NCBI GenBank assembly: GCA_964387845.1
Contig: CAYLXA010000001.1
Coordinates: forward strand, 290,627-354,626
DNA length: 64,000 nucleotides
Source: an uncultured bacterium
GTDB lineage: Bacteria; Omnitrophota; Omnitrophia; Omnitrophales; Abzuiibacteriaceae
Reading direction: 5' to 3'
Position 1 is the first letter of the stretch. Each line of letters begins with the position of its first letter. Below, piece after piece: positions 8,135-48,205 of the stretch. Under the pieces are notes generated by a model, which saw only the letters and a list, made by a program, of their open reading frames with translations, was not told the DNA's origin and made no database searches. The translations under genes were made by a program, and so were the position numbers.

Positions 8135-9511
8135 TTATTTTCCGATACAAAATTCCTTGAAAATGACATCCAAAAGGTCTTCACTGTAGATCTCGCCGAT
8201 GATCTCACGCAATGCATCCAGCGCAAGTTTTAAGTCCATCGTAACAATTTCGAGAGATTCCTGCCTTCCGAATGATTCCCTGCTCTTTTCCAGCGCTTCC
8301 AGAGACGTTTCAAGTGAACGTTTATGACGAAGCCGTATCAAAGAAGCCGATTCTTTGGCAACGCCGTTCTGCCACACCGCTGATACGACACTTTTCTCCA
8401 GTTCTTCGAAGCCAAATTTTGTTTTTGCCGAAACCAGGCATGCTTTTTGACCCTTTACAAAGTTCTTTTCTAATGTTTTTTCTAAAAGATCGGCTTTATT
8501 GATGACATGAATGACGGATTTTCCCTCCAACTCGGAGCGAATCTTCTGATCTTCCGAAGTGACGCCGGCCGGTGCATCGGTGACAAACAAAAAGAGGTCG
8601 CCAGCTTCTATATATTGGCGCGATCTTTGAAGCGCAGCTTGCTGCAAGGGATCACTGCTTTCCCAAAAACCAGCCGTATCAACCAGGCGGATAGGAATTC
8701 CGTCTAGTTCGATCATTTCTTCAAGCGTATCACGCGTTGTGCCCGGAATATCAGACACAATGGCCCGGTCACGGTCGAGAAACGCATTCAGGAGCGACGA
8801 CTTACCCACGTTCGGCCTTCCTATAATTACCGCCAGGACGCCTTCCCGCAGGATTTCGCCCTTCGTAAAGGACCCAATGAGTGATTTCATCCGGTTTGCG
8901 GTTGATTCGTAAAGATCGAGAAAGGCTTTGTTCTCATAAATCTCCAAATTTTCATCCGGAAAGTCGAGATAAGCCTCCATATGCGCGTACATTTTCATTA
9001 GGCCGTCTTTGATCCCATGAATTTCTCGGGAAAGCGAGCCTCCGAGCTGATCCATGGCGGCCTTCAACGCACGATCCGTCTTGGCTTGAATCGCATCCAG
9101 CACGGCTTCAGCTTGCGTAAGGTCAAGCCGGCCGTTCAAGAACGCGCGCTTTGTGAATTCGCCGCGCTCAGCCATGCGCGCACCGGCTTTGAGTACCGCA
9201 TCCAGAATCCGGTGCAAAGATACCGCGCCGCCGTGCGCGCTAATCTCGACCACATCTTCCTTGGTGTATGAATTCGGCGCCCGAAAAACACTCGCCAGCA
9301 CCTCATCCAGCGTTTCGTGATTTGAATCCGTGATCACGCCGTGCCGGATGGTGTGCGTTTTGGCGGAAGCAAGCGGCCGGCCGTGTTTGGATCTAAAAAT
9401 TTTATCCGCGATTTGGATTGCGTCTTTTCCGCTGAGGCGGATCATGCCGATTCCGCCTTCACCGGCCGGTGTTGAAATCGCTGCAATCGTATCTTCTGAA
9501 TTGATTATCAT
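8135..9511 (-). CDS. mnmE: tRNA modification GTPase MnmE (TrmE)
   Basis: N-terminal MIINSEDTIAAISTPAGEGGIGMIRLSG, G-domain GRPNVGKSSLLN, C-terminal CIGK motif. Confidence 0.9.
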   Translation of the reverse strand: MIINSEDTIAAISTPAGEGGIGMIRLSGKDAIQIADKIFRSKHGRPLASAKTHTIRHGVITDSNHETLDEVLASVFRAPNSYTKEDVVEISAHGGAVSLHRILDAVLKAGARMAERGEFTKRAFLNGRLDLTQAEAVLDAIQAKTDRALKAAMDQLGGSLSREIHGIKDGLMKMYAHMEAYLDFPDENLEIYENKAFLDLYESTANRMKSLIGSFTKGEILREGVLAVIIGRPNVGKSSLLNAFLDRDRAIVSDIPGTTRDTLEEMIELDGIPIRLVDTAGFWESSDPLQQAALQRSRQYIEAGDLFLFVTDAPAGVTSEDQKIRSELEGKSVIHVINKADLLEKTLEKNFVKGQKACLVSAKTKFGFEELEKSVVSAVWQNGVAKESASLIRLRHKRSLETSLEALEKSRESFGRQESLEIVTMDLKLALDALREIIGEIYSEDLLDVIFKEFCIGK

Positions 9512-9574
9512 AGTTTTAAGTCGTAAGTGGTAAGGGCTAAGTTATTCGATCGCTTAACACTTACCACTTATCAC
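9512..9574. repeat. Heptad-repeat palindrome (NNTAAGT)n ... (ACTTANN)n, copy 1, directly abutting the mnmE start codon
   Basis: TTAAGT CGTAAGT GGTAAGG GCTAAGT ... ACTTACC ACTTATC ACTTATC. Same architecture at 43396-43478 and 47192-47276. Confidence 0.55.
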
Positions 9575-10903
9575 TTATCCCTTCTTCAATTGTTCGCTCG
9601 CTTCTGCGACAAGAAATAACGATCCGGTAATCACCGTGATTGCATTCCGGTCACTGAGCCGCTTTGAATATTCCAAGGCTTCTTTTATATTTTCAGCCGG
9701 GATCATCAAATCAAAATATGCTTTGCCGGCTTCCATCATGACTTTCAAATCCTGCGCTCTCGGCTGATCAGCTTTTGTGAGAATGACTAGCTGCGCAACA
9801 CCGGCCAAAGCACCGAGCATTGATTTTAAATCTTTTTCCCGTGAGGCGCCAAAGATAACCTGGATTTTCTTTCTTGGCAATAAGCGCCTGATGTTTCGGG
9901 CTAATGCGCTCATGGAAGCATCGTTATGAGCGCCATCCAAGATAAACATGCGGCCCTTCTTATTAATCACTTCAAAACGGCCGGGCCATTTAGCCGATAA
10001 AAGACCTGTTTTTATCTGAGATTGGGATATTCCGAGACCCATTTGACGGTTTAAAACATGAATACCGGCTAAAGCCGTTGCAGCGTTTTCTGTTTGAATA
10101 TCGCCGATCAAGTGTATTCGGCAACGTGCCAGCTTGATTTTCTTCATACTGAAATCAAACACAGAGCCATTAATATCCATCCGGCGAATTCGAGCTTGGA
10201 AATCCGTGCCCGAAAAGATACCCTTCACGCCAAGCGTGCGGCATCTTTTTTGAAGTACTGATTTTGCTTCAGATGTTTGTTTCGACGATACAAACGGCGT
10301 GTTGCGCCGGATGATCATGGATTTGTCTTTCGCGATTTTGGCAATGGTGCTGCCCAGATGCTCCTGATGATCCAAACTGATCGGCATCATCACCGACAAA
10401 TTCGGATGAACGATGGTCGTTGCGTCAAGCCGTCCGCCCATTCCGACCTCGAGAACCGCCCAATCAATTTTTTGCTCCGCAAAATATAAAAAAGCAATCA
10501 GTGTTGAAATTTCAAAAAATGTGATGGGTTCAAGCAATTTAATCTCGCGGCGTCTTTTCTCGATGGTCCTTTTTACTTTCGATACCAGCTTCGCGAGTTC
10601 CGATTTTGATATCATTTTCCCGTTAACGCGGATCCGCTCGCGAAAATCAATCAAGTGCGGCGATGTGTACATCCCGGCTTTGAATCCGGCAGATTGGAGA
10701 ATCGATTGAAAAAAGACAGCGGCCGAACCTTTTCCCTTTGTTCCGCCGATTAAAATGGACGGATACTTTTTCTCGGGATTGCCGAACCAGCGCGCAAGCA
10801 CACGCATCCGCTCGATGTTGAGCTCGCGTTTGTATTCGAAATGCGACACTTTCTCGAGGTTAAAGAAGGAATAAAGATACTGAAGCGCCGAAGCGTAGGT
10901 CAT
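9575..10903 (-). CDS. folC: Folylpolyglutamate synthase/dihydrofolate synthase (Mur-ligase family)
   Basis: LIGGTKGKGS P-loop of Mur ligases and overall FolC architecture. Confidence 0.8.
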   Translation of the reverse strand: MTYASALQYLYSFFNLEKVSHFEYKRELNIERMRVLARWFGNPEKKYPSILIGGTKGKGSAAVFFQSILQSAGFKAGMYTSPHLIDFRERIRVNGKMISKSELAKLVSKVKRTIEKRRREIKLLEPITFFEISTLIAFLYFAEQKIDWAVLEVGMGGRLDATTIVHPNLSVMMPISLDHQEHLGSTIAKIAKDKSMIIRRNTPFVSSKQTSEAKSVLQKRCRTLGVKGIFSGTDFQARIRRMDINGSVFDFSMKKIKLARCRIHLIGDIQTENAATALAGIHVLNRQMGLGISQSQIKTGLLSAKWPGRFEVINKKGRMFILDGAHNDASMSALARNIRRLLPRKKIQVIFGASREKDLKSMLGALAGVAQLVILTKADQPRAQDLKVMMEAGKAYFDLMIPAENIKEALEYSKRLSDRNAITVITGSLFLVAEASEQLKKG

Positions 10904-10915
10904 GGAAAGCGGGGT

Positions 10916-12478
10916 TTAATGTTTGAAATGACGTTCGCCGGTAAAAACCATGGCAATGCCGTAATGATCGCAGGCCGCGATAACTTCCGAATCTTTAATC
11001 GAGCCGCCCGGCTGAATGATGGCACGGATACCGTTCTGATGGGCGACTTCGATATTATCCGGCATCGGGAAAAACGCATCACTCGCAAGCATGCTTCCGC
11101 GCGACCATGATTTTGCTTTTTCGCAGGCCAATTTGACGGCATCGACCCGGGACGTCAAGCCGCCGCCGATTCCCACGGTCTGCGTTCCGCGCACAAGCAC
11201 AATCGCGTTTGACTTCGTGACTTTGACGCAGCGCCAAGCAAAAAGCAGAGATGCCAATTCTTCTTTCGACGGCTTTGATTTCGTAACGGTTTTCAAATTT
11301 TTATTCAGCCTGGCTAAATGATGGTCAATCGGGTCGTCTCGGTCCTGCAGCAAAACGCCGCTTTTCACGTACCTCAAATCATACGGCCCGATGTGGCGAA
11401 ACTCTGGCACTTCAATAACGCGGAGATTTTTACGCTCCTGGAATATTTTGAGTGCTTCTTTTGAAATTTTAGGCGCAACAACGACTTCGAAGAAAGTAAG
11501 TTTGGCAAAAAGCATCCGCGCAGCAGCGGCCGTCACTGGCTGATTGACGCCCACAATACCGCCGAACGCCGAAAGCGGATCGCAATCGACAGCCTGCGCA
11601 ATCGCAGTTTCCAGATCCTGATTCACGGAAATGCCGGAAGGATTGTTGTGCTTCACCACACACGCCGCGGTTTCTTTGAATTCGCGCATGATGTCGACCG
11701 TTGCATCGATATCAAGAATATTGTTATATGAAAGTTCTTTGCCCTGAAATTGAGTAAACGAAAATTTGGGCGCCGAATCAAGCCGCGTGTAAAGCGCCGC
11801 GCGCTGGTGCGGATTTTCGCCGTACCTGAGCGTGGCGGATTTCTTAAACGGAACGCTCAAAAATTCAGGCAGGCCTTCTTCTTTCACAAATTGCTTTTCA
11901 AGATAATGCGCAATGGCATGATCATAAGCCGATGTATGCTGAAACGCTTTCAGAGCAAGTTTCTCTAGCGTTTCTGCCGATAATTTTCCGCCGTTCTTCT
12001 GCAATTCTTCAGCCAACACTGTGTAATCCGCTGCATCGGTAACGACCGCAACCGATTCGTGATTCTTCGCCGCCGAACGGATCATCGCCGGGCCGCCGAT
12101 GTCGATATTTTCAATAGCTTCGGCCAGTTTCACCTTCGGATTTTTGACCGTTTCCTGGAACGGATAAAGATTGATGACCACCATATCGATCGGCTGAATG
12201 CCGTGCTGTTTGGCTTGTTTGGCGTGCGATTTAAGGGAACGCCGGAATAAAATGCCGCCGTGAACTTTGGGGTGAAGGGTTTTGACGCGCCCGTCCATCA
12301 TTTCAGGAAAGCCGGTAAGATCCGAGATATTTTTAACCTTGAGACGCGCTTTCTTGAGCGCCGCCTCCGTACCGCCGGTTGAAATCAACTCAACGCCTAA
12401 TTTGGCAAGCGTTTTTGCGAAATCCACGACGCCGGTTTTATCGGATACGCTGATGAGTGCGCGTTTAATTTTTGCCAT
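10916..12478 (-). CDS. purH: Bifunctional AICAR transformylase/IMP cyclohydrolase PurH
   Basis: MAKIKRALISVSDKTGVVDFAKTLAKLGVELISTGGT (MGS-like IMPCH domain) followed by the AICARFT domain. Confidence 0.9.
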   Translation of the reverse strand: MAKIKRALISVSDKTGVVDFAKTLAKLGVELISTGGTEAALKKARLKVKNISDLTGFPEMMDGRVKTLHPKVHGGILFRRSLKSHAKQAKQHGIQPIDMVVINLYPFQETVKNPKVKLAEAIENIDIGGPAMIRSAAKNHESVAVVTDAADYTVLAEELQKNGGKLSAETLEKLALKAFQHTSAYDHAIAHYLEKQFVKEEGLPEFLSVPFKKSATLRYGENPHQRAALYTRLDSAPKFSFTQFQGKELSYNNILDIDATVDIMREFKETAACVVKHNNPSGISVNQDLETAIAQAVDCDPLSAFGGIVGVNQPVTAAAARMLFAKLTFFEVVVAPKISKEALKIFQERKNLRVIEVPEFRHIGPYDLRYVKSGVLLQDRDDPIDHHLARLNKNLKTVTKSKPSKEELASLLFAWRCVKVTKSNAIVLVRGTQTVGIGGGLTSRVDAVKLACEKAKSWSRGSMLASDAFFPMPDNIEVAHQNGIRAIIQPGGSIKDSEVIAACDHYGIAMVFTGERHFKH

Positions 12479-12493
12479 TTTTGTTTCCTAATT

Positions 12494-12584
12494 CCCTCTC
12501 CCTTTGGGAGAGGGCTAGGGTGAGGGATTTCTATAAATCCCACCACCCTCATCCTAACCTTCTCCCTCTAAAGAGGGAGAAGGG
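12494..12584. repeat. REP-like nested-hairpin element (family 1: CCCTCTCCC-N3/4-GGGAGAGGG plus GGGTGAGGG arms), copy 1
   Basis: CCCTCTCCCTTTGGGAGAGGG, GGGTGAGGGATTT..AAATCCCACCACCC, CTCCCTCTAAAGAGGGAG. It overlaps the last 9 codons (IPSPSLEGEG*) of the class IV aminotransferase gene. Confidence 0.6.
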
Positions 12585-13381
12585 ATAAATCGTTTCATTA
12601 ACCTGCTTGTTATAACGCCCGGAATTTCCGTGCCGATTTGACGGCCATCGAGCGACCGCACCGGCACGATGATACCTGTTGAATTGGTTAAAAAGGCTTC
12701 ATCCGCATTAAATACATCGTGACGCGTTAAGAAGGATTCTTCCGCCGAAATACCCAATTCGAGCGCATATTTTAACACAAAACGGCGGACGACTCCATTC
12801 AGGATTCCGGCTGTGGGAGGCGTTTTCAACGCGCCTTCCTTCACCATGAAGAAGTTCCAGACTCCGGCCTCGCGTACATACCCGTCTGGCCCCAGATAAA
12901 TCCGGTCAAACGAATCGGTACAATCTAAAAAAGCAAGCAGCCCATTGACCAGATCGCCTGATTTTGCTTCCGGCGGAACGCTGTTTGAGAGGTTGCGCCT
13001 CACAGCGGAAGTTTTAAGATCAACGCCTTCCCGATAAATCTTTTCGGGATAAGAGCGCACGGATACGATCGTGAAAATATTTTTCTCCGAAACAGCCAGA
13101 CGAATTGAATGGTTTGGATTTTCTTTGGCGATTTCGGCAAGTTCTTTTTCAATCCGTTCACGTTCGGTGGGAACTTCAATCCCTGAAGTTTTTGCGGATT
13201 CAAACAAACGGTCCAAATGTTCATTCAAATGCAGAATTTTACCGCTCCGGGATTGCATGGTTTCGAAAACGTTTAATCCAAGCTCCGCCGGCGATATTAT
13301 AGGAAGCTCTGCCGGTTTTATCTGTTTTCCGTTGATAAAGAGAAGCATATCCGTAAGTGACATGGGAAAAGTATAAAGCAA
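12554..13381 (-). CDS. Class IV aminotransferase family protein (PabC aminodeoxychorismate lyase / IlvE-like)
   Basis: 275 aa, fold-type IV PLP enzyme length. Its C-terminal 9 aa are encoded by the REP element. Lies 24 bp downstream of the giant ORF. Confidence 0.65.
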   Translation of the reverse strand: MLYTFPMSLTDMLLFINGKQIKPAELPIISPAELGLNVFETMQSRSGKILHLNEHLDRLFESAKTSGIEVPTERERIEKELAEIAKENPNHSIRLAVSEKNIFTIVSVRSYPEKIYREGVDLKTSAVRRNLSNSVPPEAKSGDLVNGLLAFLDCTDSFDRIYLGPDGYVREAGVWNFFMVKEGALKTPPTAGILNGVVRRFVLKYALELGISAEESFLTRHDVFNADEAFLTNSTGIIVPVRSLDGRQIGTEIPGVITSRLMKRFIPSPSLEGEG

Positions 13382-31458: not shown

Positions 31459-32952
31459 TTATCTGTTGGAAAGGGCTTCGACAAGCGCTTTTCCCTTGTG
31501 AAGCGTCTCTTGATACTCTGCGGCGGGTTTTGAATCATGCACAATACCGGCGCCGACTTGGAAGTAACCCTTTTGCTGATTAATCACGATTGTGCGGATC
31601 ACAATGTTGAGATCCAGATCACCATCAAAACCAAAATAGCCAATGGAGCCGGTATAAATCCCGCGTTTGAAAGGTTCCAGCTCTTCGATAATTTCCATAC
31701 AGCGAATCTTTGGGCATCCCGTGATAGTTCCGCCCGGGAACATCGCGCGTACCAAATCAAATTGATCCGCATCATCACGAAGCTCGCCCTTTACGTTTGA
31801 GACAATGTGCACAACGTGTGAATATTCCTCAAGCGCCATCATCTCGCTCACGCGCACCGTGTGCGGCTTGCACACGCGCCCCAAATCATTGCGTTCCAGA
31901 TCTACTAGCATAATGTGCTCGGCGCGCTCTTTATCATTTGAGATAAGTTCACTGCGCAGTTTCTGATTTTGCACTGCCGTTTTCCCGCGCGGCCGGGTCC
32001 CTGCAATCGGGCGCGTTTCGCACGCACTTCCCCGCTTTTTGATGAGGCGCTCCGGCGAAGAGCTAATCACCTGCAAATCGCCGAGACGAAAGAAACTGGA
32101 AAAAGGTGACGGATTGATATCCCGCAAACGTTCATAGAGTTTCTCAGAACTTCCTGAGAAATCAAACGAGAACCGCTGTGAAAGATTGGCTTGATAAATA
32201 TCGCCTGCCTCTATGTAATCTTTGCCTTTTTTGACAATCGCTTCGAATTTTGATTTTTGAATATCAGATTTAAAATTCTGAATTTGTATTTGTCCATTTT
32301 GATAAAGCGTTTGATTGAGTTTCGAGAGAGTCTCTTGAATCCAATTTTGACTTTCACTTAGCTGATCCTCAAAACTCTTTCTCTCGGAAGGCATTAAATT
32401 GCTGATGAGATAAATCGCTTTCTTTGATTCATCGTAAGCGATCAAATTTCGGATGAATAGGAAAACAGCTTCATCCAGTTTTTGGTCATTCTTCGCCCGG
32501 TTGGGCAGGCGTTCAAAATCCCACGCCAAATCATAGGAAAAATAACCAACCGCGCCGCCTAAAAATTCAGGGCCGGCGTTCCATTTTCTTCCGCGATAAG
32601 TTTTAAAGAGCTTGCGCATTTCCAGAAGAAAATCACCGCGTTTTTTTACGACCCTCACCCTGCCCTCTCCCTCAGGGAGAGGGAAACGCGAAGCGTGGGT
32701 GAGGGATTTTTCGATCGAAATATTTTTACCCTGCTTTCGCAAGATTAAAAACGGGTCGCTGGCCATATAGGAAAATGTACCGGTTTTCTGGTGAAAGCGC
32801 GCGCTATCCAGGATAAACGAATTTTCGGAAGACTGGATCCTGCGGAAAGTTTCCCAGGAACTCAACGAAGCGGGGATTTTTTGGATCAGCGGAACAATGA
32901 AGCCTTTTTGGAAATATTTTCGAAGTGTCGTGATGGGCAGAACGTTATTCAT
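31459..32952 (-). CDS. Chorismate-utilising enzyme, anthranilate/para-aminobenzoate synthase component I family (PabB/TrpE-like), carrying an in-frame REP insertion
   Basis: GDIYQANLSQRFSF, PERLIKKRGSACETRPIAGTRPRG, PGGTITGCPKIRCMEIIEELEP, GAGIVHDSKPAAEYQETLHKGKAL. No trpG/trpD adjacent. The PabC-like gene and folC are nearby. Confidence 0.8.
   Translation of the reverse strand: MNNVLPITTLRKYFQKGFIVPLIQKIPASLSSWETFRRIQSSENSFILDSARFHQKTGTFSYMASDPFLILRKQGKNISIEKSLTHASRFPLPEGEGRVRVVKKRGDFLLEMRKLFKTYRGRKWNAGPEFLGGAVGYFSYDLAWDFERLPNRAKNDQKLDEAVFLFIRNLIAYDESKKAIYLISNLMPSERKSFEDQLSESQNWIQETLSKLNQTLYQNGQIQIQNFKSDIQKSKFEAIVKKGKDYIEAGDIYQANLSQRFSFDFSGSSEKLYERLRDINPSPFSSFFRLGDLQVISSSPERLIKKRGSACETRPIAGTRPRGKTAVQNQKLRSELISNDKERAEHIMLVDLERNDLGRVCKPHTVRVSEMMALEEYSHVVHIVSNVKGELRDDADQFDLVRAMFPGGTITGCPKIRCMEIIEELEPFKRGIYTGSIGYFGFDGDLDLNIVIRTIVINQQKGYFQVGAGIVHDSKPAAEYQETLHKGKALVEALSNR
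32650..32705. repeat. REP-like family 1, copy 2, translated in-frame inside the PabB-like gene
   Basis: CCCTCACCCTGCCCTCTCCCTCAGGGAGAGGGAAACGCGAAGCGTGGGTGAGGG encodes ...SRFPLPEGEGRVRVVKKRG... within the ORF. Confidence 0.6.
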
Positions 32953-34350: not shown

Positions 34351-34695
34351 TTACTTAACAATTGCTCCAGACGGTAAATCTTTTTCGGGAGTTAGAAATG
34401 CGAGACTTGAATCCGTGCTTGCGGCCAGCAGCATGCCTTGTGATTCAACGCCGCGGATCACGGCCGGAGCCAGATTTTTCACCACCACGATTTTTTTACC
34501 GACCAGCTCTTCAGGTTTATAGAATTGTTTAATACCGGCCACGATGGTCCGTTGCTCATCGGCAATCTTAATCCTCAAAACCCACAAACGGTCGGCGTTG
34601 GGATGCGGCTCCACTGCCAGGATTTCGGCCACCCGCAGCTCCAGCTTCTTAAAATCATCGTATGTAATGGTTTCAGTCGTCATTTGAGCCGCCAT
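34351..34695 (-). CDS. tRNA-binding protein (CsaA / EMAP-like OB-fold, MetRS C-terminal-domain-like)
   Basis: MAAQMTTETITYDDFKKLELRVAEILAVEPHPNADRLWVLRIKIADEQRTIVAGIKQFYKPEELVGKKIVVVKNLAPAVIRGVESQGMLLAA. Start trimmed to the Met at 34695. The longer ORF-track N-terminus runs through a palindromic repeat. Confidence 0.65.
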   Translation of the reverse strand: MAAQMTTETITYDDFKKLELRVAEILAVEPHPNADRLWVLRIKIADEQRTIVAGIKQFYKPEELVGKKIVVVKNLAPAVIRGVESQGMLLAASTDSSLAFLTPEKDLPSGAIVK

Positions 34696-34735
34696 TCTAT
34701 CACTAACCAAATAACGGTGGCAAGAAGGCTTCTCT

Positions 34736-34889
34736 AGCAGTATGGGATATCTCTTCCGGCACCAGCAGTTCGCAAGCTCCTGCGGCTTGCGCCTGCCTGC
34801 GCGCTCGCCCGTTGAACCCGCCGAAAAGCATGGCGGGGCCAAGCTTCAACGGGCTCCGCGAGCTGCCTTTAGAGATATCCCATACTGCT
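34736..34889. repeat. MITE-like palindromic element with perfect 19-bp terminal inverted repeats
   Basis: AGCAGTATGGGATATCTCT (34736-34754) and its exact reverse complement AGAGATATCCCATACTGCT (34871-34889) flank 116 bp containing further imperfect inverted repeats (GCTCGCCCGTTGAACCCGCC / GGCGGGGCCAAGCTTCAACGGGCTCCGCGAGC). Confidence 0.5.
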
Positions 34890-34949
34890 TTACTTTAATA
34901 GCGGAAAACAGAAAATCGTTAAAGCTTACCTTCGGAGGGAATAATTTGC

Positions 34950-35050
34950 CGAATGCGGCTCACGGAACCACGAGGAGCTAGGCCCCCCGACTCTATTTCG
35001 CAAAGCGAGACAGCGGGGGTCCGAGTGGTGAGTGCGCAGGCGGCTTGACG
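34950..35050. repeat. GC-rich roughly 90-bp element, copy A (second copy at 38320-38405, same orientation)
   Basis: gagctaggccccccgactctatttcgcaaagcgagacagcgggggtccgagtggtgagtgcgcaggcgg versus gagcttggtcccccaccgttttgtttcgcaaagcgaggcagcgggggtctgaaggatgagagcgcaggcgg; about 80-85 % identity by eye. Potential stems GGCCCCCCG/CGGGGGTCC and CGCAAAGCG. Confidence 0.5.
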
Positions 35051-35361
35051 CCGCAGCCCGTCACCTACATTGAATTTCCTATTGAAGGTGAGGGCTGTCC
35101 CAATTCACCTATGAATAAACGTCTTAAGGCTTTAATGATAATTGGGACTGGAACGGCCGAAGTGCCGGTGCCGGCAGACAATCCTTGCCGGTGCTTAATA
35201 AAGATGGAAAACTAGTTTATTGTTGTAAGTTATTATAAATAAATGACTTATGGAATATAGTTTTTCTTGTCAGGTAGCGAAAAAATGATAGAATATCGGT
35301 CTCATTTTTGACTTTGTATCCGCGAATGTGGCCCTCAGTAAGCGTCTAAAGGGAGAGAAAA

Positions 35362-36471
35362 TTGGGAAAGATTAAAATAGCAGTCGTCGGTGTCGGGAAT
35401 TGCTGCGCTTCCCTGGTCCAGGGAATCGAGTTCTACCGCCATCAAAACGGCACCATTGCCAAGAGCCGTGAGCATCTGGGTTTGATGCATTATAACCTAG
35501 GCGGCTACTTACCGGAAGACATCGAAATCGTCGCTGCGTTTGATATCGATAAACGTAAGGTCGGTGAACGCCTTGATGTCGCGCTAAAAGCCAAGCCCAA
35601 TAATGTGCTCGAGCTTTTCGGCGATATTCCCCGCAGCCGTGTCGTGGTTCAAATGGGAACCGTGTTGGATGGGTATTCGGAACACATGTCAGAATATCCT
35701 GTTGATCGCACATTTGTCCTCGCGAAACAAAAACCTGCCAATGTAGAACGCGTTCTGAAAGAGAGCGGCGCTGAAATTCTTTTGAATTATTTACCGGTTG
35801 GATCCGAGGAAGCCACACAATTCTACGCGGAAGCTTGCCTCAAAACGGGCGTGAGCTTCATTAATTGCATGCCTTCCTTTATTGTTTCAGATCCCAAATG
35901 GTCAAAGCGTTTTGAAGATAAGCGAATTCCCGTGATTGGCGATGATATTAAGGCTCAGCTGGGTGCTACAATTGTTCACCGCACGCTTGCGAAATTGTTT
36001 GCAGACCGCGGCGTCAAGATTGACCGCACCTATCAATTAAATACCGGCGGCAACACTGACTTTTTGAATATGCTCAACCGCAAACGCCTGGCATCCAAGC
36101 GCATTTCAAAGACGGAAGCCGTCCAAAGCCAGCTCGAAATTCCGCTGGATGAGGAAAATATTCACATCGGGCCTTCGGATTATGTCGCGTGGCAGAACGA
36201 CAACAAAGTTTGTTATTTGCGCATGGAAGGCCGCGGATTTGCCGGTTTCCCGGTGAATGTCGAACTCAGGCTTTCTGTGGAAGATTCCCCCAATAGCGCC
36301 GGTGTCGCGATCGATGCGATCCGCTGCTGCAAGCTCGCGCGTGAACGCAATATCGGCGGGCCGCTCGTTTCAATTTCAGCTTACGCGATGAAACATCCGC
36401 CGAAACAACTTCCCGATACCCAAGCCCGTGAACTCGTCGAAAAGTTCATCCAAGGCACTTGCCAGCGCTAA
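35362..36471 (+). CDS. myo-Inositol-1-phosphate synthase (inositol-3-phosphate synthase), bacterial/archaeal short type
   Basis: N-terminus (M)GKIKIAVVGVGNCCASLVQGIEFY matches the characteristic MIPS Rossmann start. 369 aa. TTG start with GGGAGAG SD-like 5 nt upstream. Only sizeable plus-strand gene in the window. Confidence 0.75.
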   Translation: MGKIKIAVVGVGNCCASLVQGIEFYRHQNGTIAKSREHLGLMHYNLGGYLPEDIEIVAAFDIDKRKVGERLDVALKAKPNNVLELFGDIPRSRVVVQMGTVLDGYSEHMSEYPVDRTFVLAKQKPANVERVLKESGAEILLNYLPVGSEEATQFYAEACLKTGVSFINCMPSFIVSDPKWSKRFEDKRIPVIGDDIKAQLGATIVHRTLAKLFADRGVKIDRTYQLNTGGNTDFLNMLNRKRLASKRISKTEAVQSQLEIPLDEENIHIGPSDYVAWQNDNKVCYLRMEGRGFAGFPVNVELRLSVEDSPNSAGVAIDAIRCCKLARERNIGGPLVSISAYAMKHPPKQLPDTQARELVEKFIQGTCQR

Positions 36472-36476
36472 CCCGT

Positions 36477-36518
36477 CATTGCGAGGCGCTTAAATTGTCG
36501 CCGAAGCAATCTACGTTT
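36477..36518. repeat. Repeat family 2 (TCATTGCGAG..GAAGCAATCTACGTT), copy 1; second copy at 43991-44074
   Basis: tcattgcgaggcgcttaaattgtcgccgaagcaatctacgtt versus tcattgcgagacatagtgattggtgtcgaagcaatctacgtt. Confidence 0.5.
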
Positions 36519-36519
36519 T

Positions 36520-36699
36520 AAGCTTTGAAGAAGCCCTTCGCTCAGTGAATTCAACGTGAGAAATCTATTTGCTTAGGCATTGGAACACCTTCCACCGTTC
36601 CTACAATACTTAACGCTGTAGGCCGTCGGCTTTCCAACGCCTTCACACATGATTTCTCTCTCACGAATTCAATTCGCTTCGGCGCTTCTTCAAAGCTTT
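36520..36699. repeat. MITE-like element with about 45-bp imperfect terminal inverted repeats (outer 15 bp perfect)
   Basis: AAGCTTTGAAGAAGC (36520-36534) versus GCTTCTTCAAAGCTT (36684-36698). Inner arms ...TCAGTGAATTCAACGTGAGAAATC / GATTTCTCTCTCACGAATTCAATTCG. Confidence 0.45.
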
Positions 36700-36751
36700 C
36701 CGCGCCACCCGCATCTAAATCCTAAGGCCGCAAATTGCGACCTTAGAATTT

Positions 36752-37291
36752 CTACCCAATCTTCCCGGGCCGATGCGGATCCATCTCAAAACCAATCGCA
36801 TCCGTAGTCGGCGGCGCCAAAAGCGGCCTAATCATTTTGAACAATCTCTGCAAAGCTCTGTCGTGATCGAGCAGAACCTTCTCAATTTCATCCAATCGTC
36901 CGTGCAGAATTTGATTCAGGTTGAAAACTTCTCTCAATCTCACAAAAGCACGGATCACGTAAACGCTCATACGGACAGCTCGGTCACTGTTTAAAATGTT
37001 GGCTGCCATTAACGCCCCGTGTTCTGTGAAAGCAAAAGGAAGATACCGATCGCCACCCCGACCCTCTTTCTTTGAGGTCACAATCTGTGACCTCAAAAAT
37101 TCTGCTTCCTCCAGAGTAAGCTGAAACATGAAATCTGCCGGAAAACGGCTTCGGTTACGTTTGACAGCTTGATTGAATGCTTTTGTGCTCACCCCATAAA
37201 GCTCCGCTAAGTCACGGTCAAGAATAACGCTCTGACTCCGGATGATGAGAACACGATTTTCTACAGCTAATTTAGGACCTCTTTTAGACAT
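36752..37291 (-). CDS. ORF6N / KilA-N-family DNA-binding-domain protein (family seen on phages and mobile elements)
   Basis: MSKRGPKLAVENRVLIIRSQSVILDRDLAELYGVSTKAFNQAVKRNRSRFPADFMFQLTLEEAEFLRSQIVTSKKEGRGGDRYLPFAFTEHGALMAANILNSDRAV is the typical ORF6N-domain signature (from memory). Confidence 0.55.
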   Translation of the reverse strand: MSKRGPKLAVENRVLIIRSQSVILDRDLAELYGVSTKAFNQAVKRNRSRFPADFMFQLTLEEAEFLRSQIVTSKKEGRGGDRYLPFAFTEHGALMAANILNSDRAVRMSVYVIRAFVRLREVFNLNQILHGRLDEIEKVLLDHDRALQRLFKMIRPLLAPPTTDAIGFEMDPHRPGKIG

Positions 37292-37444
37292 GAAACACCC
37301 CTCTTATTGGTTTTAAATGGAGGGGGGATTTTAATTTTGTTTTTTACTGCGGGAGATATGGAATTATATATAACTTTTACGATTAATCAACACTCAACTT
37401 CTAGCCTGTCCCCTTAGAAGGTGCCTGGCACTTTTTTTATGAGA

Positions 37445-38113
37445 TCAAATGACCCCTTTCATTAATGTTTCTTTAACTTTCTTGGCATTTTTTAGTCCTT
37501 CGTCAATCAAAGAAATAAAATACTCAATTTCTCCATTTAAAGTACTAGGATAAAAATCTCCAACCCGACAGCATCCTTCACAAATTCCATCCATAGCTTG
37601 AACGTAAGCGGTTTCAGCAAATGTAAGCCATTCACGCGTTTCATTCCATGTTTCCTTCCCATCATGAGTACGCCAGGGGAAATTATGAACACGTTGAATA
37701 TTCCGATGAGGATTTATCTTGTCACTAATATCTTTTATTTTTTCCTCGTACTCATCAAAATGAGATAAAAACTCTTTTCGTTGTTGTTTTAACCTATCTT
37801 TTGAGAAAGTCTGTCTTTCTAATTTTAGTTCAATATTTTCTTCTGAAACTTCTTTGCTTTTTTGCATTAAATTCCATAAACTAGCTTCACTAGAACGACC
37901 AAAAATCTTTCCTAAAGCGAGAATGTACTTTGTTTCCAAAGCATCTCGAATAAAGCTGAATAAGCCACCAAATTCTCGTTCAAATCCTTCTGATTGAACA
38001 AGCCCGTTATTCCATTTGAATAATAAAGCATGGAAAATGTTAGCCTCGCAAAGATCTCTGCTTACACAGGTTTCTATTACCTTCAGTGAATCTTGAACTT
38101 CATCCATCATCAA
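37445..38113 (-). CDS. Hypothetical protein encoded by a markedly AT-rich gene; contains a possible HEPN-like Rx4-6H motif (RNIQRVH)
   Basis: 222-aa ORF. Local GC visibly lower than flanks (long A/T runs). No recognisable family. Lies between the ORF6N gene and a GC-rich repeat cluster. Confidence 0.45.
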   Translation of the reverse strand: MMMDEVQDSLKVIETCVSRDLCEANIFHALLFKWNNGLVQSEGFEREFGGLFSFIRDALETKYILALGKIFGRSSEASLWNLMQKSKEVSEENIELKLERQTFSKDRLKQQRKEFLSHFDEYEEKIKDISDKINPHRNIQRVHNFPWRTHDGKETWNETREWLTFAETAYVQAMDGICEGCCRVGDFYPSTLNGEIEYFISLIDEGLKNAKKVKETLMKGVI

Positions 38114-38195
38114 CCTCCAATAAATTCATGATTCTGTACCAATTATAAAAGCATTCATATTTTATGCCCCCAATTCGCAGAAGACAACCTGGTTC

Positions 38196-38290
38196 TCGAA
38201 ATAGAACGCCCTCACCCCCTCCGGGCCTAAGGCCCGATAGGGCCGGAGGCTCACCCTACCCCTCTCCCAAAGGGAGAGGGAAAAACAAAG
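38196..38290. repeat. REP-like family 1, copy 3, plus extra GC hairpins
   Basis: CCCTCTCCCAAAGGGAGAGGG and CCTCCGGGCCTAAGGCCCGATAGGGCCGGAGG. The 38164..38448 plus-strand ORF in the track is a spurious translation of this repeat DNA. Confidence 0.55.
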
Positions 38291-38319
38291 GAAGAATCTG
38301 GCTTTGTGGAGGCGGCTCT

Positions 38320-38405
38320 CGGAATCCTTCAGAGCTTGGTCCCCCACCGTTTTGTTTCGCAAAGCGAGGCAGCGGGGGTCTGAAGGATGAGAGCGCAGGC
38401 GGTCG
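38320..38405. repeat. GC-rich roughly 90-bp element, copy B (see 34950-35050)
   Basis: Direct-orientation duplicate. Together the two copies bracket the ino1, ORF6N and AT-rich gene segment. Confidence 0.5.
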
Positions 38406-38455
38406 AGCCCGCGGGAGGCGAGAACCGCCGGCGCCGGAACAAAGCTAGATTCTGA

Positions 38456-39337
38456 CTAAATTAGTGCTAATCCGATTAATTTGTAAATAAGGCGCGCGAC
38501 GAGGAAATTGGGGGCGTGAAGCTTTTCTATCGGTGATAATTCCATGACATCAAAACCAACAATTTTTCGTGACTTGGCGATTTCCCTAAAAAGCGCCATG
38601 GCTTCATGCCACAAAAGACCGTTGGGTTCCGGTGTTCCGGTTGCGGGCATAATCGAAGGGTCAAAACCATCTACATCGATCGTAATATAAACTTCATCCG
38701 TTAAATTGGTCAGCGCGGTGTGAATCCAATCTTGAATTGCCATCTTTTTGATTTCGTGCGCGTATAAAATGTTTACGTTTTGCTTCTTGGCGACCCTGAT
38801 TTGATCCGGTGAAATGCTGCGGATACCGACTTGCGAAAGCGGGCACTTTCCTGCAATGCGCGCCGCAATTGAGGCGTGCGAATAAGGCGTTCCCTCATAA
38901 GAATCGCGCAAATCCGCGTGAGCGTCGATCTGCAGAACGGACATTTTGGGATATTTCTTCAAGTGTGATTTGATTAACGCGCTTGAAATAGAATGTTCAC
39001 CGCCGATTCCGACCAGGAATTTATTTTCCGAGAGAATTTCATCCGATCGCTTTTCCAATCTTTCGATAAATTGCTTCGGGTCTTTTTCCTTTGCGGCAGG
39101 TTTGAAGCTTGGAAGTGTCGCAATCGATACCTTTTTACATGTTTCAACACCCAATTCCTCATCGTAATACTCCACATAACGAGAAGCATCAATAACAGCT
39201 TTGGGGCCGCGGGATGTGCCTTTTCCGTAAGAGACCGTTCCTTCATAAGGAACCGGCAAAACAGCAACTTTGGATTTGGTGTAAGCGGGTTCGGGATCCT
39301 GGCCTAAAAAGTTAAATGGGGCTTTTTCGTGCTGCAT
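38456..39337 (-). CDS. speB: Agmatinase (ureohydrolase / arginase family)
   Basis: GGEHSIS, DAHADLRDSYEG, ITIDVDGFDPS Mn-binding motifs of the arginase fold. Adjacent to the pyruvoyl arginine decarboxylase. Confidence 0.7.
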   Translation of the reverse strand: MQHEKAPFNFLGQDPEPAYTKSKVAVLPVPYEGTVSYGKGTSRGPKAVIDASRYVEYYDEELGVETCKKVSIATLPSFKPAAKEKDPKQFIERLEKRSDEILSENKFLVGIGGEHSISSALIKSHLKKYPKMSVLQIDAHADLRDSYEGTPYSHASIAARIAGKCPLSQVGIRSISPDQIRVAKKQNVNILYAHEIKKMAIQDWIHTALTNLTDEVYITIDVDGFDPSIMPATGTPEPNGLLWHEAMALFREIAKSRKIVGFDVMELSPIEKLHAPNFLVARLIYKLIGLALI

Positions 39338-43395: not shown

Positions 43396-43478
43396 TTTTT
43401 ATCCAGTGTTAAGTTGTAAGTGATAAGTTTTAAGTTATTCAATTACTTACCACTTATAACTTATCACTTACCACTATG
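43396..43478. repeat. Heptad-repeat palindrome, copy 2, beginning right after the sucC ATG (in its 5' leader)
   Basis: GTTAAGT TGTAAGT GATAAGT TTTAAGT ... ACTTACC ACTTATA ACTTATC ACTTACC. Confidence 0.55.
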
Positions 43479-43994
43479 TTACAAACTTACAAAACGTCCC
43501 CGCGCGTGTTCCGCTGCAAGCTGAGCGTACCGCTTGGCCCATTCGATCTGGCCTTTGACTTCTTTCTTGGTCAATTTCCGCTTAAATTTAGCCGGCATTC
43601 CAAGATATAAACTCTCAGGTTTTACCTTCATCCCTTCCGTCACAAGCGCTCCGGCGCCCACGAGTGCGCCTTCGCCAATCACCGCGTCATTTAAAATAAT
43701 CGCGCCCATTCCGATCAAGGCGCCCGATTTTACCGTACACGCATGCAAAATCACATTGTGCCCAACCACGCAATAATCACCCACGTAACAGCCGCGCTCG
43801 CGCTCTAAATGTACGAGCGAGAGATCCTGAATGTTTGTGTATTTACCGATCACAATTTCATTAATGTCGCCGCGCAGCACCACGCCGGGCCAGATATTGG
43901 CATAATCCTTGAGCGTCACGCGCCCGATCACTTGCGCAGACGGATGAACCCAGACATTCTTCCCGAGTTTCGGCTTATAAGTAAAAGTCGTCAT
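43479..43994 (-). CDS. Gamma-carbonic-anhydrase-like / hexapeptide-repeat (LbH) family protein
   Basis: MTTFTYKPKLGKNVWVHPSAQVIGRVTLKDYANIWPGVVLRGDINEIVIGKYTNIQDLSLVH. Start trimmed to the Met at 43994. Confidence 0.65.
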   Translation of the reverse strand: MTTFTYKPKLGKNVWVHPSAQVIGRVTLKDYANIWPGVVLRGDINEIVIGKYTNIQDLSLVHLERERGCYVGDYCVVGHNVILHACTVKSGALIGMGAIILNDAVIGEGALVGAGALVTEGMKVKPESLYLGMPAKFKRKLTKKEVKGQIEWAKRYAQLAAEHARGRFVSL

Positions 43995-44074
43995 TGCGAG
44001 ACATAGTGATTGGTGTCGAAGCAATCTACGTTCTGAGATTGCTTCGGCGAAGTTTTCAAAGCGCCTCGCAATGA
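43991..44074. repeat. Repeat family 2, copy 2, with internal hairpin GTCGAAGCAATC..GATTGCTTCGGC and outer TCATTGCGAG/CTCGCAATGA arms
   Basis: Intergenic between sdhB and the LbH gene. See copy 1 at 36477. Confidence 0.5.
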
Positions 44075-46574: not shown

Positions 46575-47189
46575 TTAGACTCTCACTAAGTGAATCAGCG
46601 AACTGAGGCCCATCGTGAAAACAATTACGCCAAGAAGCGCGGAAAACACGGCTGAGACTCTTTGTGATTTTGGCCCGACCGTAATGCCCCAGCTGATTGC
46701 AAATCCCCAAAGGCCGTTTGCAAAATGGAAACACACGGCAGCAAGACCAACGATGTAAAACCAAAATGTAAACGGATTCGCCATAAGTTCCTGCATCCGC
46801 GCAAAACTCACTTCCGTTCCGTAAAGCGCGTGCATAATGCGTGTTTCATAAACGTGGTACAAAATATAGGCAAACGTAATCAAGCCCGTCCAGCGCTGAA
46901 GTACATAGAGAAAATTTTTTGTGTTCGGATAAGACGACAGGTTGGATTTTCCGCTAAACCAGACGTAGAAACCGTAACCGGCATGATACAAAATCGGAAG
47001 CGCGATAAAGATGATTTCAAGTGCAACCACAAACGGCAAACTTTGCAGGAATTCGATTTTTTCGTTGTAAGCTTCCGGGCCTTGTGTAATGAAGGAATTC
47101 GTGAACATGTGCTCCAGCAAAAAAGCGCCGATCGGAAATACGCCGGAAAGCGAGTGGAGCCTTCTAAGCCAGAATGAGGATTTAGACAT
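46575..47189 (-). CDS. Succinate dehydrogenase / fumarate reductase cytochrome b membrane subunit
   Basis: 204 aa, 5 predicted TM helices with conserved His. Immediately upstream of sdhA-sdhB. Confidence 0.6.
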   Translation of the reverse strand: MSKSSFWLRRLHSLSGVFPIGAFLLEHMFTNSFITQGPEAYNEKIEFLQSLPFVVALEIIFIALPILYHAGYGFYVWFSGKSNLSSYPNTKNFLYVLQRWTGLITFAYILYHVYETRIMHALYGTEVSFARMQELMANPFTFWFYIVGLAAVCFHFANGLWGFAISWGITVGPKSQRVSAVFSALLGVIVFTMGLSSLIHLVRV

Positions 47190-47191
47190 TT

Positions 47192-47276
47192 TTCAGTCGT
47201 AAGTTGTAAGTGGTAAGTCGTAAGTTAATAAAATGGTAAGTTTTTGCTTCTTACTTACCACTTATCACTTACGACT
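47192..47276. repeat. Heptad-repeat palindrome, copy 3, between the mdh stop and the sdh cytochrome b start
   Basis: CGTAAGT TGTAAGT GGTAAGT CGTAAGT ... ACTTACC ACTTATC ACTTACG ACTTACA. Confidence 0.55.
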
Positions 47277-48205
47277 TACAACTGGAGTTTACCGATACTT
47301 TCTTTCACATGCGCAACCGACTTTTGAAGCGCTGCTTGATCAGCGGCAGAAATTTTAAGCTCGATCACTTTTCGGACGCCGCTTTTATCCAAACTCACCG
47401 GAACACCGCAATAAGTACCGGAAATTCCGTATTCACCGTTCAAAAGTACGCAGCACGGCAAAATTCGGCCTGAGTCATTCAAAATTGCTTCGACCATTGC
47501 AACTGCCGAACTTGACGGCGCATAATACGCGCTGCCTGTTTTAAGCAAATTCACAATTTCGATTCCGCCGTCGCGCGTGCGCTGATTAATTGCATCGATT
47601 CTTTCTTTCTTGATGAGCTGTGTAATCGGAACGCCGTTCACGGTCGAGAAATCAGGGACCGGAACCATCGAATCGCCGTGGCCGCCCAACACCATCGCGC
47701 GAACGTCTTTCGGTGATACTTTGAGTTCTTCGGCAATAAAATACGCATAACGCGAGGAATCCAGAACGCCCGCCATACCGATCACGCGCTTTGAATCAAA
47801 CCCTGATTTCTTCCACGCCAGATAAGCCATGACATCCAGCGGGTTTGTGACAATAACGAGAATTGCTTTTGGAGAATATTTGACAATTTCGGTGACGATA
47901 CCGCCCACGATTTCGGCGTTTTTGGCCTGCAAATCATCACGGCTCATGCCGGGCTTTCGGGCGAGGCCTGCTGTGATCACAACGACGTCAGAATCTTTTG
48001 TATCAGCGTAGGAATTGGTGCCGACGATTTTGGTATCGAATTGCTCGAATGAGGAAGATTCCATCATATCAAGCGCTTTTCCCTGCGGCATTCCTTCAAC
48101 CACATCGACTAAAACGACATCCGCCAATTCTTTTTCAAGGATTCTTTGAGCGCAAGTGGCTCCGACGAAACCTGCTCCGACTACGGTCACTTTTGAACGA
48201 TTCAT
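47276..48205 (-). CDS. mdh: Malate dehydrogenase (LDH-like, NAD-dependent)
   Basis: KVTVVGAGFVGATCA Rossmann motif; VVITAGLARKPGMSRDDL; catalytic GGHGDSMVP. Confidence 0.85.
   Translation of the reverse strand: MNRSKVTVVGAGFVGATCAQRILEKELADVVLVDVVEGMPQGKALDMMESSSFEQFDTKIVGTNSYADTKDSDVVVITAGLARKPGMSRDDLQAKNAEIVGGIVTEIVKYSPKAILVIVTNPLDVMAYLAWKKSGFDSKRVIGMAGVLDSSRYAYFIAEELKVSPKDVRAMVLGGHGDSMVPVPDFSTVNGVPITQLIKKERIDAINQRTRDGGIEIVNLLKTGSAYYAPSSSAVAMVEAILNDSGRILPCCVLLNGEYGISGTYCGVPVSLDKSGVRKVIELKISAADQAALQKSVAHVKESIGKLQL

Follow-up and report, generated by a model that had tools for sequence, protein, structure and literature searches.

Background

The locus treated here lies in a 64,000-nucleotide stretch of DNA from an uncultured bacterium of the Omnitrophota (contig CAYLXA010000001.1, positions 290,627 to 354,626; hereafter the window), in which two genes of defence-linked families, ORF6N and HEPN/AbiU2, and three copies of a GC-rich repeat of about 155 nt (E1, E2 and E3) are found among conserved genes. 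The described systems with which we compared it are the short palindromic repeats of bacterial genomes and the defence-gene hotspots. Among the former, miniature inverted-repeat transposable elements (MITEs) keep their terminal inverted repeats (TIRs) constant, as the transposase reads them, and repetitive extragenic palindromic (REP) sequences are single hairpins of 20-40 nt linked to RAYT genes. The attC sites of integron cassettes have conserved R''/R' boxes (RYYYAAC / GTTRRRY) at their outer ends and a variable centre, and an attC stands after each open reading frame (ORF). Both Omnitrophota and Patescibacteria, the two groups that will concern us, are ultra-small, possibly host-dependent bacteria.

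The bcr1 repeat of the Bacillus cereus group is about 155 bp long and cruciform-like, with an outer stem and two stem-loops, shows compensatory changes and is transcribed (Delihas 2011, PMC3184786). It encodes no protein, its genomic positions differ even between close relatives, 5-bp direct repeats flank it and it belongs to one species group (PMC3184786). As for the two protein families, the AbiU2 family consists of HEPN ribonucleases (RNases) whose genes adjoin restriction-modification operons (Anantharaman et al. 2013, PMC3710099), and one representative of the PADLOC family PDC-S05, which carried a Virulence_RhuM domain, lowered the plating of T7 and T5 about 1000-fold in E. coli and protected against T4 too (bioRxiv 10.1101/2024.09.26.614923).

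The region in related genomes

We consider the region to be probably a fast-changing chromosomal junction between core genes in Candidatus Omnitrophota, and not a single mobile island. The genes and variable segments concerned are the following.

34351..34689, minus strand: csaA-like tRNA-binding domain gene, conserved left flank (Pfam tRNA_bind, E = 7.5e-31)
34703..35225, no strand: window-specific insert of 523 bp that contains E1, E2 and some smaller palindromes (comparison with L013 and L015 by blastn and alignment)
35362..36471, plus strand: ino1, myo-inositol-1-phosphate synthase (Pfam Inos-1-P_synth, E = 3e-36)
36752..37291, minus strand: ORF6N gene, stand-alone (Pfam ORF6N, PF10543, E = 8e-32)
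37372..38455, no strand: replaceable segment, here with AbiU2, REP and E3 (lineage B homology lost at 37371)
37445..38113, minus strand: AT-rich HEPN/AbiU2-family gene, predicted RNase (Pfam HEPN_AbiU2, PF18734)
38456..39337, minus strand: agmatinase gene, conserved right flank (Pfam Arginase, E = 2e-65)

Related contigs were obtained as the 90%-identity cluster mates of window proteins, and an outgroup via one further ino1 homologue. We called the window A, the contigs L013, L014 and L020 lineage B, the contigs L015 and L016 lineage C, and used L080 as the outgroup. A genome scan based on agmatinase returned only relatives at 44-50% identity, too remote for synteny. The four configurations were these.

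State A (window): pabB, DUF1015, csaA, (E1, E2), ino1, (family-2 hairpin and 179-bp hairpin), ORF6N, AbiU2, (REP, E3), agmatinase
State B (L013, L014, L020): as A minus the E elements; an unrelated gene of 369-371 aa replaces AbiU2 and abuts agmatinase
State C (L015, L016): csaA, ino1, a 177-bp palindromic spacer, agmatinase; no ORF6N, AbiU2 or E elements
Outgroup (L080): DUF1015, csaA, ino1, then glnE and a pseudouridine synthase gene (rluB-like)

The order DUF1015, csaA, ino1 was unchanged across the four, and the content differed downstream of ino1, with four states in four related genomes. Lineage C is the closest to the window (85-90% nucleotide identity, proteins 88-99%), the proteins of lineage B being 74-98% identical to those of the window. 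On the two flanks, the csaA product has 91-99% identity to the relatives' proteins at the same position and agmatinase 82-93%; beyond the agmatinase gene, Pfam identified PvlArgDC and a circularly permuted ATP-grasp protein.

The positions at which homology stops are precise. In the divergent csaA/ino1 intergenic region, where the insert sits, the window has 523 bp (34703-35225) against 51-56 bp in lineages B and C. The sequence shared with lineage C breaks off at 36473, just past the ino1 stop codon, and restarts at 38457, at the agmatinase stop codon. Homology with lineage B spans the family-2 hairpin, the 179-bp hairpin, ORF6N and 80 bp of ORF6N upstream sequence, is lost at 37371 and comes back at 38466. 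None of the break points so obtained by blastn and alignments (34703/35225, 36473, 37371 and 38456) matches an end of a repeat copy.

The slot between ORF6N and agmatinase takes up foreign genes, and this is confirmed by its lineage B occupant. This gene (X369; in L013 at 12202-13311, minus strand, 369 aa) has GC 0.32 and a GC content at third codon positions (GC3) of 0.27 in a genome of GC 0.45, and gave no significant family match and no defence-profile match. Its product shows, by eye, hydrophobic stretches near the N-terminus and in mid-protein; it further has a part with weak likeness to CBM_4_9 and, at the C-terminus, a zinc-ribbon-like CxxC...CxxC stretch.

Dozens of proteins labelled Candidatus Omnitrophota or Omnitrophica at NCBI share 75-83% identity with the ino1 product, which places the organism in Omnitrophota, its score against NCBIfam TIGR03450 being 426 bits, under the 638-bit cut-off, and the gene is syntenic in L013, L014, L015 and L080. 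Its best matches are Omnitrophota proteins and it is therefore a conserved gene of Omnitrophota; judged from these matches and from synteny, ino1 is core and vertically inherited, not cargo.

A first-pass annotation of the window, made from the letters alone, had described a small island with ino1 as bracketed cargo and with two direct GC-rich copies (here E2 and E3) as its bounds, or else a hotspot of defence genes with foreign DNA. Every sequence feature that it listed was found where it had been placed, above chance, ino1 (35362-36471, plus strand) included, but the status of ino1 as cargo did not hold. Neither GC-rich copy is present in the relatives, where csaA and ino1, and in lineage B ORF6N too, still follow one another in the same order. 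Since the comparison with relatives that it had suggested gave the same gene order without the flanking repeats, a result that speaks against an island over most of the stretch concerned, we reject the single-island reading. What stands, in a narrower form, is the hotspot, with its four junction states, its variable content between conserved flanks and its occupants of the HEPN_AbiU2 and PDC-S05 families.

Two further observations concern the relatives. The 177-bp spacer of the empty site in L015 (5646-5822) is made of nested palindromes (TCTCTGCCCCAG ... CTGGGGCAGGA and CATGACTT ... AAGTCATG) and is unrelated to any content of the window's slot. Next to pabB, on its upstream side, lineage B has a gene called for a 3804-residue protein (L013 1-6339, L014 1-6252), which has no Pfam match.

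The three repeat copies in the window

The copies were delimited with a covariance model, R2, as follows.

34731..34887, minus strand: E1, canonical copy, the 154-bp TIR element (141 bits, E = 8e-43)
34934..35082, plus strand: E2, degenerate copy, GC-rich copy 1 (56 bits, E = 8e-16)
38291..38462, plus strand: E3, full copy, GC-rich copy 2 (123 bits, E = 5e-37)

The 154-bp element with perfect 19-bp TIRs was confirmed at 34736-34889. Its TIRs (34736-34754 and 34871-34889; 0.02 matches expected by chance) form the outer stem P0 of E1, and its fold has a z-score of -7.05 in comparison with shuffled sequence. The two GC-rich copies were likewise found in the same orientation (34955-35046 and 38312-38405), with a 61-nt core 80% identical and a 26-nt core motif that occurs in two places only in the 64 kb (0 expected); the longest exact run shared by E2 and E3 is 14 nt. 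A covariance model produced from these two copies, with 4 compensatory pairs in one stem, gave a third full-length match at 34790-34866 on the minus strand, inside the TIR element. Both the 154-bp element and the GC-rich element of about 90 bp are thus present as annotated, but they are not separate things: they are one family of about 155 nt, of which E1 is an inverted, more canonical third copy.

E1 and E2 stand head-to-head, 46 bp apart. In E2 the stem P3 is enlarged, P4 (the second arm) is shortened and the outer stem is decayed; E3, whose outer stem is formed by 38293-38307 and 38439-38453 (15 bp), abuts the agmatinase stop codon. Run with filters off, R2 found exactly 3 copies in the window, and it found none in 150 kb of relatives' and control loci. 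The three copies are absent from the related genomes and are, therefore, insertions and not att sites. The direct-repeat arrangement of E2 and E3 is incidental: the repeats are a dispersed family whose copies landed independently in permissive intergenic DNA.

We also observed that the short-read assembly of Logan SRR15237813 breaks inside E1 (34777) and in the hairpin beside the REP copy (38219-38238), contig L010 corresponding to window 34777-38238 and contig L001 to the window from 38219 onwards. Two causes are conceivable: further occurrences of the 31-mers of these sites in the genome, or a polymorphism of the population at them.

Fold, covariation and distribution of the repeat family

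Folding of the extended elements gave a shared architecture, i.e. a three-way junction with conserved junction motifs and copy-specific stems. The outer stem, whose sequence is specific to each copy, is 19 bp in E1, 15 bp in E3 and decayed in E2. The first arm consists of GCRGCUC or GCUCUC, a GGA bulge, a variable 10-bp stem, an AGCUNGG (AGCUUGG) loop and a hairpin, and is followed by GCA. The second arm runs from GGCGG through a CGCWGGAG loop to GAACCGCC, and is followed by GGA or GGU and the closing strand of the outer stem.

A search for exact 25-nt cores gave no match in metagenome or viral contigs. Because the copies are too diverged for such scans, we used on the metagenome contigs a gapped motif derived from the three window copies, which returned 45 metagenome loci, about 38 of them true members; 7 of the 45 (L025, L040, L045, L047, L051, L053 and L054) were discarded as chance matches in GC-rich coding DNA, and the sole viral-contig match was one of these seven false positives. 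On a MAFFT alignment of 29 sequences, RNAalifold predicted 48 pairs, 39 of which had compensatory double changes. Paired cells amounted to 93.7%, versus 66% in shuffles and 33-43% in slid registers, and the covariation score was 0.73 versus 0.20 for shuffled alignments, a value that none of 500 shuffles reached. As the stems lie outside the search pattern, the way in which the sequences were collected does not produce this signal. The window and 12 loci had no gathering-score match in Rfam 15 (only chance-level matches at E < = 10), and a literature search on the motif strings of the repeat returned unrelated primer sequences only.

By named cluster mates, the hosts include Candidatus Omnitrophota (L060, L067) and Parcubacteria/Patescibacteria (L049, L048). 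The repeats lie beside housekeeping genes (fusA/tuf, secY, transketolase (tkt), lpxB, murB, metH, RNase D and glpD), in both orientations, and no gene is consistently adjacent. Their GC content (0.53-0.71) is always above that of their own contigs (0.40-0.60). Two loci, L027 and L049, have 2 copies each. Those of L027 are in direct orientation, with ordinary transporter genes in the 3.6 kb between them. In the Parcubacteria locus L049 the copies (4827-4971, minus strand, and 5012-5168, plus strand) are head-to-head, 40 bp apart, between fusA and tuf; this pair mirrors E1/E2. Such pairs may come from insertion beside a copy already in place, or the two copies may function together.

One Omnitrophota subfamily has at least 9 copies at unrelated sites, two of them on one 113-kb contig. 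In this subfamily (L032, L039, L043, L050, L060, L061, L066, L067) the 155-nt element is central in a conserved hairpin unit of about 330 nt. The unit ends with AATCCCAATGCG ... CGCATTGGGATT, and the flanks just beyond it look complementary to each other by eye in several copies. In L036, L060 and L067 we noted nested insertions of another small palindrome, ...CCCCAATTTCCAC...GTGGAAATTGATGGGTATTGGGAC.

Several known classes were tried for the family and rejected. No transposase, TnpB/IscB, reverse-transcriptase or RAYT gene was seen at the repeat loci, and TnpB, IscB, a transposase or a reverse transcriptase was discarded as the repeat's protein partner, the neighbours being housekeeping genes. 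From reading of sequences and alignment, an integron cassette or attC was rejected too: the conservation is interior, the outer ends are variable and there is no consistent orientation after ORFs. A type III toxin-antitoxin system, with its RNA antitoxin beside an RNase gene, was rejected because E3 is antisense to AbiU2 and the family is mostly beside housekeeping genes. As for MITEs, the family is multi-copy, non-coding and present or absent at orthologous sites, but it has no shared TIRs, the outer-stem sequence differing by copy or subfamily. Repeat-bracketed cargo was not retained as a general pattern, the genes bracketed in L027 being transporters.

From these alignments and comparisons we infer that the E elements are probably non-autonomous mobile elements whose fold, as RNA or single-stranded DNA, would be under selection. 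Tentatively, we go one step further: the element of about 155 nt might be a previously undescribed structured RNA family of Omnitrophota and Patescibacteria, which spreads within and between genomes without encoding a protein and whose loop motifs (bulge GGA, AGCUUGG, CGCWGGAG) bind a putative mobilising or partner protein. This is a possibility that we put forward at less than even chances.

The HEPN/AbiU2 and ORF6N genes

The composition scan suggested by the first-pass annotation was run, and 37445-38113 deviates as anticipated. The gene has GC 0.345 and GC3 0.256, versus a window mean GC of 0.465 (sd 0.031; z = -3.9, all 669-bp windows), it is the sole stretch with GC < = 0.37 in the 64 kb and its tetranucleotide divergence is in the top 0.6%; in neighbouring genes GC3 is about 0.5, against 0.26 here. 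It had been called an AT-rich orphan, of which the first word is right and the second is not. In fact, its product matches HEPN_AbiU2 (PF18734) with 30.7 bits over a curated cut-off of 26.8 bits (E = 2.7e-7) and has 13 homologues at 44-63% identity. Residues P135, R137, N138, Q140, R141, H143 and N144 are invariant in 13 sequences and correspond to the Rx4-6H HEPN motif (RN-x-QR-x-H). The gene is foreign by composition and a member of the HEPN_AbiU2 family. In the public call its product has 220 aa, with the start at 38107.

The two homologues with context (L011, L012) are both in defence or toxin-antitoxin neighbourhoods: one adjoins an SNF2/PLD helicase gene and an MmeI-type methylase gene, the other genes for a DUF4411 PIN protein, CoiA and an RHH protein. 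The AlphaFold model of the protein is all-helical, with a predicted local distance difference test (pLDDT) score of 78. The family motif and these neighbourhoods suggest that the protein may be an infection-triggered RNase and act in abortive infection.

The ORF6N protein matches two profiles of the PADLOC family PDC-S05, PDLC04869 (E = 7e-49) and PDLC04856 (E = 3e-45, over positions 11-160 of its 177). Its gene has a native composition (GC3 0.47), is 96% identical in lineage B and is absent in lineage C and in the outgroup. The ORF6N family is very large (at least 7953 matches at 55-72% identity), and homologues are single genes, which have housekeeping genes around them or border a restriction-modification island. 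The structural model (pLDDT 80) has an N-terminal alpha/beta DNA-binding-like domain and a helix at 103-158; a structure search with it gave nothing significant in the Protein Data Bank (PDB), nor did sequence searches of the PDB with the AbiU2 and ORF6N proteins. ORF6N would be a protein that binds DNA and oligomerises, with a role in defence or regulation. Inside the ORF6N coding sequence, at 37071-37097, there is a perfect palindrome with a 12-bp stem, TTTGAGGTCACA-ATC-TGTGACCTCAAA, which is 100% conserved in lineage B versus about 82% identity around it.

Other repeats and palindromes in the window

The remaining repeats of the region are these.

35097..35148, no strand: small palindrome GTCCCAATT ... 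AATTGGGAC in the window-specific insert (sequence reading)
36474..36525, no strand: family-2 hairpin CGTCATTGCGAG ... CGAAGCAATC, right after the ino1 stop codon (second copy at 43989-44040)
36520..36698, no strand: MITE-like long hairpin of 179 bp, in the gap towards which ino1 and ORF6N converge (fold z = -5.3)
38218..38280, no strand: two GC-rich hairpins, CCTCCGGGCC ... GGCCGGAGG and the REP copy CCCTCTCCCAAAGGGAGAGGG (repeat and palindrome reading)

The family-2 repeat and the MITE-like element, annotated with a length of about 180 bp, were found again at 36474-36698. The two family-2 copies (36474-36525 and 43989-44040) are 75% identical, and lineage B has the hairpin at the same site. 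The 179-bp hairpin has perfect 15-nt arms (36520-36534 and 36684-36698). The ino1/ORF6N intergenic region has 91% mean column identity with lineage B, in an alignment of three sequences, two of them near-identical lineage B copies; judged from this alignment, the hairpin is old and not a recent insertion. The small palindrome at 35097-35148 has CCCAAT/ATTGGG termini, which recall the ends of the 330-nt unit and the nested insertions in L036, L060 and L067.

The REP copy annotated near E3 is present at 38260-38280 and is one of 4 window copies of CCCTCTCCC-NNN-GGGAGAGGG. Another one, CCCTCTCCCTCAGGGAGAGGG at 32663-32683, lies in frame inside pabB (31459-32952, minus strand), the aminodeoxychorismate/anthranilate synthase gene, and is translated as ...PLPEGEGRVRV...; as the blast alignments with L013 and L015 continue across this site, the relatives appear to carry it. 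The window also has an AT-rich repeat family made of palindromic units of the type GTAAGTGGTAAG / CTTACCACTTA (9506-9582, 43399-43475 and 47189-47283), and at these three loci model R2 scored no better than chance.

Alternative explanations

A single non-autonomous or decayed island that comprises ino1, ORF6N and AbiU2 and terminates in the two direct GC-rich copies, these serving as att-like sites or as substrates of recombination, would account for two same-orientation copies 3359 bp apart around three genes, one of which is compositionally foreign. It is nevertheless very improbable. The block is not gained or lost as a unit: ino1 is core and syntenic in all relatives, relatives devoid of both copies keep csaA, ino1 and ORF6N in order, and the boundaries of insertions and deletions are off the copies. 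The copies are not near-identical, their longest common exact run (14 nt) being below the usual RecA need for efficient homologous recombination, a third, inverted copy lies next to copy 1, and in L027 direct copies bracket ordinary transporter genes. There is no integrase or recombinase gene among those at 31.4-41.3 kb, each of which has another Pfam assignment, in agreement with the annotated lack of integrase and transposase, and there is no tRNA or tmRNA gene in the 64-kb window to act as a target. The GC-rich hairpins could instead be REP-like terminators or stabilisers of host transcripts at gene ends, as the stacking of E3, REP and another hairpin right after the agmatinase stop codon would suggest, together with the family-2 and 179-bp hairpins that lineage B conserves between convergent genes. 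We regard this as improbable: the region that holds E1 and E2 is one of divergent promoters, E3 runs antisense to the transcript of agmatinase, none of the hairpins had a T-tract terminator called at it and the relatives do without them.

A more serious competitor, still rather unlikely in our judgement, is that the elements of about 155 nt are functional non-coding RNA genes or cis-acting RNA modules that benefit the host, e.g. a protein-binding RNA acting via the GGA and AGGA loop motifs. All variable helices covary strongly and the unpaired nucleotides of the junction are conserved, two phylum-level groups have the core in common, the GC content of the elements consistently exceeds that of their hosts and G·U pairs exceed A·C pairs 2:1 in the modelled orientation. 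Set against this, the orthologous sites of relatives at 75-90% identity have no elements, the orientation to neighbouring genes varies and none of these is consistently adjacent, one subfamily is many-copied at unrelated sites with some copies interrupted by small insertions, and a copy as degenerate as E2 is tolerated. The remaining alternative concerns the two defence-type genes, which could form one toxin-antitoxin or abortive-infection module, the ORF6N protein regulating or neutralising the HEPN RNase. The two genes are neighbours on one strand with 153 bp between them, each family has a link with defence and ORF6N adjoins a foreign AT-rich gene in lineage B as well; yet GC3 is unlike in the two (0.47 and 0.26), ORF6N is 96% conserved with lineage B while its partner was swapped, the AbiU2 homologues in L011 and L012 have no ORF6N neighbour, the ORF6N homologues stand alone among housekeeping genes and each gene has its own promoter-like site. 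The pairing was not found in the homologue neighbourhoods inspected, and a two-gene module has, in our opinion, little to recommend it.

Some results weigh against our own interpretation, that of a changing junction with mobile repeats and a defence slot. With the phylogeny ((A,C),B), ORF6N needs a gain and a loss, or recombination between lineages. The window ORF6N protein has no Virulence_RhuM domain, unlike the PDC-S05 representative that was assayed. The motif-bearing loop of the AbiU2 model is of low confidence, and a Foldseek search of the PDB with this model gave nothing at E < 0.3, the HEPN structure 3jrt ranking 11th with E = 1.3. For the repeats, those copies whose outer stems are clean showed no target-site duplication, in a crude check in which the stem finder failed on bulged stems. 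As no target-site duplication and no mobilising enzyme were found, mobility rests on absence from orthologous sites and on the multi-copy subfamilies. The perfect outer stems could come from templated quasi-palindrome correction instead of selection, and the G·U count (40, versus 20 A·C) speaks only weakly for selection at the RNA level in the modelled orientation.

A possible history of the region

With the region taken as a changing junction, its history would be as follows. DUF1015, csaA and ino1 would have been inherited vertically, and the convergent junction after ino1 would be the site of content change. ORF6N, a PDC-S05-type gene, may have been in place since before the split of lineages A and B, and is missing from lineage C. 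The slot between it and agmatinase would then have taken up different AT-rich foreign genes, here HEPN/AbiU2. The three GC-rich elements of about 155 nt would have been inserted into the non-coding DNA of the region, possibly in trans, by a factor that is encoded at another place and moves them in their folded form (RNA or single-stranded DNA), and may accumulate here since this intergenic DNA tolerates insertions.

Comparison with known systems

For annotation, the case indicates that a direct-repeat pair around odd genes is insufficient for an island call: three related lineages and an outgroup reduced the island to one core gene and a slot of one or two genes. For the study of defence, this would be a clean natural minimal hotspot in Omnitrophota, in which differing AT-rich genes, one of the HEPN/AbiU2 family and one for a putative zinc-ribbon membrane protein, take the same place of a few hundred bases beside a highly conserved PDC-S05/ORF6N gene. 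As regards RNA and mobile elements, the covariation is unusually clear for a family that Rfam 15 lacks, in two candidate phyla with an almost unexplored non-coding repertoire; if our tentative proposal were true, the family would be a new class of mobile element acting at the RNA or single-stranded-DNA level, or a new protein-binding RNA. The covariance model R2 makes genome-wide surveys and partner-protein searches possible.

Like defence islands and hotspots, the region has variable content between fixed flanks, defence families and AT-rich foreign incomers. In contrast to them, the slot is tiny (one or two genes) and has no integrase, tRNA gene or mobile-element backbone, and its occupant ORF6N is old and highly conserved. 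In comparison with AbiU of Lactococcus lactis and the AbiU2 HEPN family, the window gene has a Pfam match above the cut-off and the invariant R137-N-x-Q-R-x-H143 motif, and its homologues adjoin restriction-modification genes, as described for the family (PMC3710099); it differs in that its product is distant from the family profile (E = 3e-7) and in that there is no AbiU1 partner gene. ORF6N resembles PADLOC PDC-S05 in being a single gene with a full-length profile match, whereas the window protein consists only of ORF6N and a coiled-coil-like helix and its homologues are often among housekeeping genes.

The REP copy inside pabB resembles the Rickettsia palindromic elements inside genes. The E family shares with REP/REPIN sequences and with MITEs (Correia/NEMIS, ERIC) that it is short, non-coding, palindromic, intergenic, multi-copy and variably present. 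It departs from MITEs in that its termini vary by copy while the interior junction is conserved, and from REPs in being a three-way junction of about 155 nt, with no RAYT or transposase gene seen at the repeat loci. The best described analogue is bcr1, to which the E family is similar in size, fold type, compensatory changes and patchy distribution; the two are likened by description and not by sequence. Unlike bcr1, the E family spans Omnitrophota and Patescibacteria, no target duplication was seen for it, and it is GC-rich, with variable termini, strictly conserved junction motifs and copy-specific stems.

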